The position numbers are program-made. This document shows, in pieces, positions 3,001 to 4,078 of a stretch of 4,078 bases of DNA (positions are counted from its first letter, which is position 1; each line of letters begins with the position of its first letter). This DNA comes from a virus (Duplodnaviria > Heunggongvirae > Uroviricota > Caudoviricetes): the IMG/VR virus record IMGVR_UViG_2541047122_000024; one strand, written 5' to 3'.

Positions 3001-4078
3001 AATTAACGACGAGCTGTACCTCTCAATTTCGAAGCTGCAGGAGCATGCAGCACTGGTCTACAAAATTTTTTGCATTTCAGAAAGTAATGACGCCCGCGAG
3101 TGTGCAGCTCCGGGCGCCGTGGCGTGTCGTGACTGTGGAGAAACTAACGCATGAACAGTTTAACAACACACTACCGTCGCTCGCAACTGATTGCACTTCC
3201 TGTACCGGGTGGAAAAGCGAAGGTGGAGTATTGCTATGCAGTGAATGTACCAGGTGACAGGGAAATTGTAACCCACAGCTTTGCAGAGTGGGCTGTGGGT
3301 GATTTCAACAGGCAAAAGGAGACAGTCCTTTGCGACAAGTTAACCGCTGGTTCAAAGATCACTACGGAGTGCCCGTCAGAGTCATTCGTTGGGAACCGGA
3401 AACACAACGGGTTATCTACCTCCGCGAAGGCTATGAGCATGAGTGCTTCAGCCCGCTCGAACAGTTTCGTCGTAAATTCAGGGAAATAGAGGTCGGTCAT
3501 GAGCACTAAATTAACCGGCTATGTATGGGATGGTTGCGCTGCGTCAGGCATGAAGTTATCCAGCGTGGCAATTATGGCCCGCCTGGCTGATTTCAGTAAT
3601 GACGAAGGTGTGTGCTGGCCATCAATTGAAACCATTGCCCGCCAGATTGGCGCGGGGATGAGCACCGTCAGAACGGCTATCGCACGGCTGGAAGCAGAAG
3701 GCTGGTTAACGCGTAAGGCGCGTCGCCAGGGTAACCGCAATGCGTCGAATGTTTATCAGCTTAACGTTGCGAAGCTTCAGGCAGCGGCATTTTCTCAACT
3801 GTCAGATTCTGACCCGTCAAAATCTGACGCATCAAAATCTGACCCGTCAAAATTTGATGCGTCGAAATCTGGCAAAAAAGCGGGTTTTCACCCGTCAGAA
3901 TCTGGCGGGGATCCGTCAGTAAAATCAAAACATGATCCGTCAGATAAAAAACTGAACCGCCCCGGAAATCCTGGAGACTAAACTCCCTGAGAAAGAGGTA
4001 AACAGGATGACTAAAAATACTCTTCCCTTGTAGTGGTGGCTGAAGGCATGATGATTGTAGTGGCACACTGAATTTGGC

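Follow-up and report, generated by a model that had tools for sequence, protein, structure and literature searches.

Phage lambda provides two described systems that resemble the locus analysed here: Rz/Rz1, an out-of-frame nested phage gene pair, and paQ, a CII-dependent antisense promoter within gene Q. The locus comprises positions 3151-3509 of a stretch of 4,078 nucleotides (nt) taken from the virus record IMGVR_UViG_2541047122_000024 (this whole stretch is hereafter the window), which is the immunity and early-right region of an e14/SfII-type lambdoid prophage of Escherichia coli O157. In phage 186, the CII half-sites at the promoter pE are "centred at -38 and -58" (PMC6593788). In the e14 prophage of E. 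coli K-12, ymfM was proposed by Ansari et al. to be the SfiC cell-division inhibitor (bioRxiv 10.1101/2020.11.19.390815), and expression of YmfM blocks Z-ring formation and causes filamentation, a phenotype taken here from the literature only (10.1101/2020.11.19.390815). Our analysis indicates that the locus probably consists of ymfM, a DUF4222 gene nested within it, a ymfM tail that is kept free of stop codons, and operators with promoters of a type that would be served by YmfL, the CII-like protein encoded immediately upstream.

ymfM and DUF4222 as an overlapping gene pair

The genes of the pair and their ribosome-binding sequences are the following.

3151 to 3489, plus strand: ymfM, 112 codons; codons 1-55 encode a conserved small domain and codons ~60-112 an unconstrained tail in the +1 frame of the DUF4222 gene
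3137 to 3140, plus strand: Shine-Dalgarno (SD) sequence GGAG of ymfM, within the 3' end of ymfL; motif kept in all lineages
3330 to 3509, plus strand: DUF4222 gene, 59 codons, TTG to TAA, nested in the -1 frame of ymfM; Pfam PF13973
3316 to 3321, plus strand: SD sequence AAGGAG of the DUF4222 gene, 8 nt upstream of TTG 3330, read from the sequence

Positions 3151-3489 showed 97% nucleotide identity to the K-12 e14 gene ymfM (b1148, "cell division inhibitor YmfM"), and 109 of the 112 amino acids are identical to the b1148 product. The gene directly follows ymfL in the e14-type immunity region with an ATGA overlap. The ATG at 3151, its overlap with the TGA of the CII-like gene (2603-3154) and the 112-codon open reading frame (ORF) to 3489, all described in the original prediction, are present in the sequence. 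The suggestion that 3155-3329 might be non-coding was contradicted by the pattern of variation. A comparison of 35 distinct close relatives gave 15 variant alleles in 3151-3329, every one of them silent in the ymfM frame. Across 17 diverged lineages, variation is highest at codon position 3, with an entropy of 1.0-1.1 compared with 0.6-0.67 at positions 1 and 2. The SD sequence and the ATGA coupling are kept in distant phages, and all lineages share GGAGAnnnnAACGC-ATG/GTG, which comprises the SD sequence and the start codon and overlaps the CII-like gene at its end. The first ~55 codons of ymfM encode protein, and 3155-3329 is coding.

Homologues of YmfM with 111-117 amino acids reach down to 43% identity. 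In distant phages the YmfM N-terminal domain (N-domain) is found as a stand-alone gene of 59-78 amino acids, located right after PF06892 genes; the product has 59 amino acids in Hafnia yong2, 63 in Providencia PSTRCR_117lys, 65 in Citrobacter phiNP, 75 in an Atlantibacter element and 78 in an Entomohabitans element. Phage and viral collections were much more productive than a scan of the genome collection with the YmfM alignment, which returned 6 loci only. AlphaFold2 predicted a three-strand, two-helix domain for YmfM residues ~10-66 with modest confidence, and a predicted local distance difference test (pLDDT) score below 50 for residues 67-112; the mean pLDDT of the model was 53. From about 3330 onwards the 3151 frame is rich in serine and alanine, as the original prediction had pointed out, and also in threonine, and this is the part that AlphaFold2 predicts to be disordered. 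Solved structures were sought for the YmfM and DUF4222 proteins and none was found.

The second frame, from TTG 3330 to TAA 3509, had been described as a convincing 59-amino-acid gene preceded by an SD sequence. This description was confirmed in comparison with Pfam, where the product matched PF13973 with E=8.6e-19 and 67.3 bits (cut-off 27) over profile positions 3-52 of 53. The start position is kept in relatives as ATG, GTG or TTG. Close relatives show 45 variant alleles within the overlap, of which 30 are silent in the DUF4222 frame as against 5 in the ymfM frame; O157 and K-12 differ there at three positions, all silent in DUF4222 and all changing YmfM. DUF4222 is a real gene, and its frame is under amino-acid selection in the overlap. 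Like the PF13973 genes of other phages, the window gene lies immediately upstream of a replication or Rha gene; unlike them, it lies, together with many relatives, wholly within another ORF (ymfM) in a different frame. A literature search on the function of DUF4222 and on ymfL found nothing relevant. On the minus strand, an antisense ORF of 90 codons (3234-3506) covers the entire DUF4222 gene.

ymfM and DUF4222 are an overlapping gene pair with signs of selection in both frames. The ambiguity between these frames, noted first from the sequence of the window, is a real and widespread annotation conflict. The K-12 annotation contains ymfM and no DUF4222, the annotation of O157 by the Prokaryotic Genome Annotation Pipeline contains DUF4222 and no ymfM, and phage records have either the one or the other annotated. 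Many E. coli O157:H7 chromosomes match positions 3100-3560 with 100% identity, and related sequence was found in 2,606 of 5,426 complete E. coli genomes (about half), the arrangement being present at a query coverage of at least 80% in 2,004 E. coli genomes. The pair resembles the lambda Rz/Rz1-type nested pairs in that a small gene with its own start lies entirely inside another ORF in a different frame and both frames are open. It differs in that only the nested gene is constrained in its amino acids here, whereas the outer frame is mainly constrained against stops.

Stop avoidance in the ymfM tail

A separate small gene in the 3151 frame with an obscured true end had been one of the options considered originally, and it came closest to our results. 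A separate gene is present, namely ymfM; its end, however, is not obscured, as the 112-codon length is conserved and stops are avoided. A total of 109 DUF4222 loci, forming 42 clusters at 85% nucleotide identity, were used for this analysis, and 39 clusters entered the adjacency comparison. DUF4222 always begins in the -1 frame relative to ymfM. Of the 20 clusters in which the YmfM N-domain is the upstream neighbour, 19 have a ymfM frame without stops over 50 DUF4222 codons, compared with 7 of 19 clusters where the N-domain is distant or absent (Fisher p=1.3e-4). Synonymous codons between the DUF4222 clusters are near saturation, and an exact dynamic-programming null based on synonymous resampling gave a value for openness of 0.05-0.23 per lineage. 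Analysis of valine codons revealed a specific deficit. GTG or GTA before a codon starting with A, which would give TGA or TAA in the ymfM frame, was found in 1/44 cases in adjacent lineages and in 16/50 cases in controls (p about 1e-4), and the same codons in harmless contexts of the same genes were found in 11/27. All 17 representatives, whether they have DUF4222 or not, end ymfM within -20 to +9 nt of the ATG that opens the next long gene; in the window, the stop TAG at 3487-3489 lies 9 nt before the in-frame ATG at 3499. The overlap is maintained by selection, with stops avoided and the sequence of the tail unconstrained.

Several features of the tail would also be expected if only the ~55-60 N-terminal codons mattered and the run to 3489 were an unselected by-product of DUF4222 composition, with the 112-amino-acid length an accident. 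The tail is poorly conserved (40/45 of its variants are non-synonymous) and predicted to be disordered, and the stand-alone forms manage with 59-78 amino acids. Two further observations count both for such a by-product and against our own interpretation: the 7/19 control clusters open in the ymfM frame exceed the resampling null, so that part of the openness is compositional, and the adjacent lineage L134 ends ymfM ahead of DUF4222, so that the overlap is not obligatory. We nevertheless consider a by-product unlikely, because adjacent lineages other than L134 have remained open despite synonymous saturation, the stop-forming valine codons are specifically avoided, and the first stop falls at the start of the next gene and never at random positions.

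With the overlap read as selected, the tail may serve as a coupling device or as a disordered appendage. It would act as a translational bridge from ymfL through ymfM to the next gene, or as such an appendage, rather than as a folded domain, and selection could favour the arrival of ymfM ribosomes where the replication or Rha gene begins, or could act on the appendage itself. This purpose is a prediction from sequence.

Related open frames occur elsewhere. Lineages L114, L115, L158 and L166 have DUF4222 without an upstream N-domain in the +1 frame, yet are fully open there, and such cases are commoner than the null predicts. In SfV-type phages (L110-L113, L118 and L119, comprising SfV, 2H10, ST64B and Stx phages; also L094), the ymfM frame is stop-free from a decayed N-domain (MNSLTANNRLSQ...) and crosses DUF4222 in the +1 frame into an ORF of 220-405 amino acids that is Rha-, Ash- or antirepressor-like. 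The annotated starts of this ORF differ widely.

The inverted repeat within ymfM as a predicted operator

The features that bear on the inverted repeat are the following.

2603 to 3154, plus strand: ymfL, gene of a CII-like activator of the phage 186 CII family (Pfam PF06892 Phage_CP76; RefSeq name ymfL)
1560 to 2252, minus strand: cI-like repressor gene (Pfam HTH_3 and Peptidase_S24)
3273 to 3298, unstranded: operator site 2, the core of the inverted repeat and a predicted YmfL site; CCACAG 3273-3278 and CTGTGG 3293-3298, 20 bp centre to centre
2581 to 2606, unstranded: operator site 1, CCACAG-N14-CCGTGG, where the cro-like gene stops and ymfL starts
3244 to 3249, minus strand: predicted -10 TACATT of the site 2 promoter, with -35-like GTTACA 3272-3267 and a predicted start near 3237
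2552 to 2557, minus strand: predicted -10 TAGATT of the site 1 promoter, with -35-like TTTAAA 2580-2575 and a predicted start near 2545

The perfect 9-bp inverted repeat ACCCACAGC/GCTGTGGGT at 3271-3279/3292-3300, with a loop of 12 nt, was verified. It had been described as a hairpin between the two genes; the repeat exists, but it is located within the conserved N-terminal coding part, at ymfM codons 41-50, and there is no non-coding gap. When the 461-nt region was shuffled, 2.6% of the randomised sequences contained a perfect 9-bp repeat with a loop of 3-20 nt; for the whole window the figure was 20%. Comparison of relatives revealed that pairing of the 6-bp core of site 2 is intact in all 29 distinct ones, stand-alone and decayed versions among them. 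Three of the pairs show coordinated changes (CG to UA, which is never broken; AU to CG; GC to AU). The covariation score of the site was reached by none of 500 shuffles. In Providencia the changes in arm 2 are synonymous (GCT GTG to GCG GTA), while those in arm 1 replace His by Tyr and Ser by Gln. As amino acids are altered in arm 1 and the changes in arm 2 are silent, the constraint acts on the nucleic acid.

Sites 1 and 2 are ~690 nt apart, and relatives show no variation in their N14 spacing. At all ~37 distinct two-site loci, both sites share one half-site type (CCAC... or CTAC...), and this type follows the split of the CII-like protein into two deep clades with different helix-turn-helix regions. 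The minus strand carries a TANNNT hexamer whose distance from the proximal half-site does not vary. It was seen there in 20 of 20 clusters at site 2 and in 26 of 30 at site 1, and at other offsets in about none; hexamers that resemble a -35 and start with TTG or TT stand at a 17-nt spacing from it. Inside ymfM, the -10 of site 2 is built of rare codons, with Val, Ile or Leu always encoded as NTA and preceded by AAT, AGA or AAA. None of the variants among close relatives falls in the operator cores or the -10. The whole 41-kb SfII genome contains these two sites and one weak match only. TACAAT at 3270-3265 (minus strand), which adjoins arm 1, was considered as a -10 and rejected because it is not conserved, the conserved hexamer being 3249-3244. 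Judged from these patterns, the most likely role of the hairpin is that of a CII-type operator serving a leftward promoter, not that of a tR1-like attenuator.

The ymfL product matched PF06892 Phage_CP76 with 51.3 bits (cut-off 26), its relatives scored 38.9-56.6 bits and 186 CII scored 163.6 bits; the product is placed with 186 CII because both match this profile. The 186 site, read directly, is ATGTTTG-N13-CAAACAT upstream of TAAAGT. In both systems inverted half-sites 20 bp apart, centre to centre, accompany a leftward promoter (a predicted one in the window) convergent with the lytic promoter, and one window site (site 1) lies at the start of the cII-like gene and would be directed leftward to cI. 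Counted from the predicted start, the window half-sites are centred at about -38.5 and -58.5. The half-site sequences themselves are unrelated (ATGTTTG versus CCACAG or CTACCA), and there are two sites here versus one in 186, the second 690 bp further right and inside ymfM. The window phage is moreover lambdoid and not P2-like, and activation is predicted from sequence here.

We infer that YmfL, as a member of the 186-CII family, would bind both operators, each upstream of a weak -35 and a conserved minus-strand -10, and that leftward promoter activity would follow. Site 1 is the apparent analogue of pRE/pE, at the position of lambda pRE and 186 pE. Site 2 is predicted to be a second, additional leftward promoter in ymfM codons 31-50, downstream of ymfL, which would fire leftward. 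Its transcripts would run antisense to ymfM and ymfL in the direction of the cI-like gene, which leftward transcription is expected to target. As a predicted CII-type promoter embedded antisense in the coding sequence of a lytic operon, site 2 resembles lambda paQ, from which it differs in activator family, in site architecture and in its target genes, which are ymfM and ymfL and not Q.

Several points weigh against this interpretation. The switch between CCAC and CTAC separates just two deep clades and amounts to about one evolutionary event. The distance from the centre of the proximal half-site to the TANNNT -10 is 26.5 nt here and 25 nt in 186. Pairwise BLAST between YmfL and 186 CII gave no similarity, the link being through the Pfam profile. 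The transcription starts near 3237 and 2545 are themselves predictions, and a generic sigma-70 scan of 3050-3560 called no promoter, as would be expected of an activator-dependent one, although such a negative does not in itself speak for one.

Given that the identity of the binder is a prediction and that the immunity region encodes several DNA-binding proteins, the repeats might serve another phage protein as operators, for example one of the repressors (cI-like or cro-like) or the initiator of replication. This is quite unlikely. The 20-bp spacing of half-sites and the -38/-58 geometry are an unusual hallmark of 186 CII, a PF06892 gene lies between the sites at every locus that has them, and the half-site type follows the two clades of PF06892 proteins, including the helix-turn-helix region. 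The cI, cro and replication genes, in contrast, are mosaic and vary independently among loci. Lineages L106, L108 and L109 (mEp390, Eeyore and a metagenome contig) carry a different or very divergent N-domain (MNSVNRFRPAKQFRCLP...) with the same DUF4222-spanning tail, and a CTACCA-type operator is present. The N-domain and operator module is thus exchanged jointly with the CII-like gene.

The repeat could alternatively act as an RNA hairpin in the rightward transcript. It might attenuate or terminate transcription, affect processing or stability, or regulate the translation of DUF4222, and the tR1-like attenuator of the original prediction belongs here. The fold is stable as RNA (-22.5 kcal/mol, z=-3.15), its pairing is preserved through changes on both sides, and the element lies 16 nt upstream of the DUF4222 SD sequence. 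The sequence after the stem (GAUUUCAAC), however, has no U-tract, no terminator was called at 3271-3300, and the element lies within a translated ORF. An intrinsic terminator or tR1-like attenuator was rejected on these grounds, and across phages the element behaves as a protein operator with a promoter. A search of 3100-3560 with the covariance models of Rfam 15 gave no match at E<=1. The element is also conserved in phages without an adjacent DUF4222, its conservation is limited to the 6-bp core with a lower stem of E. coli type only, and the copy at the ymfL start has the same half-sites, N14 spacing and minus-strand TANNNT offset, with the ymfL SD sequence in the spacer. We regard a role as RNA as very unlikely, and favour the reading of the repeat as a CII-type operator.

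Gene separation, neighbouring features and the sfiC assignment

A single ancestral gene split by a frameshift, as had been proposed, or a programmed -1 frameshift fusing the YmfM N-domain to DUF4222, is highly improbable: DUF4222 does lie in the -1 frame, open from 3303, with A-AAG at 3315-3318, and a few in-frame fusion proteins are in databases, but these are sporadic isolated indels with four different junctions, no slippery heptamer X XXY YYZ was found between 3303 and 3330, K-12 has CAG AAG at the A-AAG spot, and DUF4222 has its own SD sequence and conserved start codon. The hairpin is upstream, not downstream, of the putative frameshift spot. The pseudogene reading was rejected in view of these rare fusions with differing junctions and the wide occurrence of the arrangement in E. 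coli genomes given above. A frameshifted single ancestral gene is ruled out because DUF4222 and the YmfM N-domain occur separately, and independently placed, in Citrobacter phiNP, Providencia, Hafnia, Yersinia and other phages. In phiNP-like phages DUF4222 follows a rha gene and directly precedes the replication gene, ~735 nt away from the gene of the YmfM N-domain. Yersinia, Providencia and Elizabethkingia phages have DUF4222 without a YmfM N-domain gene reading into it. The arrangement in the window is accordingly read as two genes.

The remaining genes of the immunity and early-right region are the following.

2350 to 2610: cro-like gene, between the cI-like gene and ymfL in gene order
3499 to 3981, plus strand: start of the O-like replication gene (Pfam HTH_36), truncated in the window

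The O-like gene shares the ymfM frame, starts 9 nt past the ymfM stop and has an 11-nt overlap with the DUF4222 stop. Its product has 160 amino acids in the window compared with 313 in NZ_CP018247, being interrupted by a multi-copy element that occupies the last ~126 nt of the window (~3953-4078) and occurs at 25,479 places in 4,389 E. coli genomes; this part presumably represents the end of an IS3-family (IS629/IS1203-like) insertion sequence, which it resembles. Inside the O-like gene, at 3800-3875, direct repeats resembling (GA)CCCGTCAAAATCTGA look like the iterons of a replication origin, and Rfam 'mir-5880' matches at the same positions were rejected as spurious. To the left of the cI-like gene, 521-743 (minus strand) gave a near-threshold Rfam match to the gammaproteobacterial small RNA STnc100 (43 bits versus a gathering score of 47, E=3.6e-7).

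The K-12 e14 locus is identical in position and gene order (cI-like, cro-like, ymfL, ymfM, replication gene), and its ymfM is itself no different. Added here are the finding that another conserved gene uses the DNA of its 3' half, and the prediction of a promoter with an operator in codons 31-50. The evidence for ymfM being sfiC comes from the ymfM "open reading frame" in pBAD24 and a Lambda-Red deletion (10.1101/2020.11.19.390815). The cloned ymfM ORF contains the SD sequence, the TTG and codons 1-53 of 59 of DUF4222, which is essentially the whole Pfam domain; the published deletion takes out both genes, and the earlier library clones carried the full region. As the published clone and deletion include DUF4222, these experiments do not separate YmfM from the DUF4222 product.

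In both systems cII is followed immediately by the gene of a cell-division inhibitor (fil in 186, ymfM in e14), and by analogy the position of 186 fil favours YmfM as the division inhibitor. In phage 186 (L200), positions 2436-3367 contain cII, fil (cell-division inhibitor) and dhr (host replication inhibitor, with a 14-nt overlap with fil), and these positions match those of ymfL, ymfM and DUF4222. Homology of YmfM with 186 Fil and of DUF4222 with 186 Dhr was rejected, as there is no sequence similarity. A speculative and rather doubtful extension of our results is that the SfiC or filamentation phenotype comes wholly or partly from the nested DUF4222, that the 57-codon YmfM tail lacks a function as protein and only takes ribosomes over DUF4222 to where the replication gene begins, and that the CII-activated antisense promoter silences a division and replication module during lysogenisation.

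This study resolves a systematic annotation conflict, and both ymfM and DUF4222 deserve annotation in approximately half of the complete E. coli genomes. For the sfiC assignment, the existing ymfM clone and deletion are unable to distinguish YmfM from DUF4222. The overlap constitutes a case of a reading frame held open without a conserved amino acid sequence. For lysogeny control, our analysis predicts an establishment circuit for a large group of e14-, SfII-, SfV- and Stx-phage-related elements, with two CII-type operators and promoters in 186 geometry. One of these predicted promoters would be hidden in coding sequence, with its -10 maintained by rare codons, and would be an example of a regulatory DNA element shaping synonymous codon choice.

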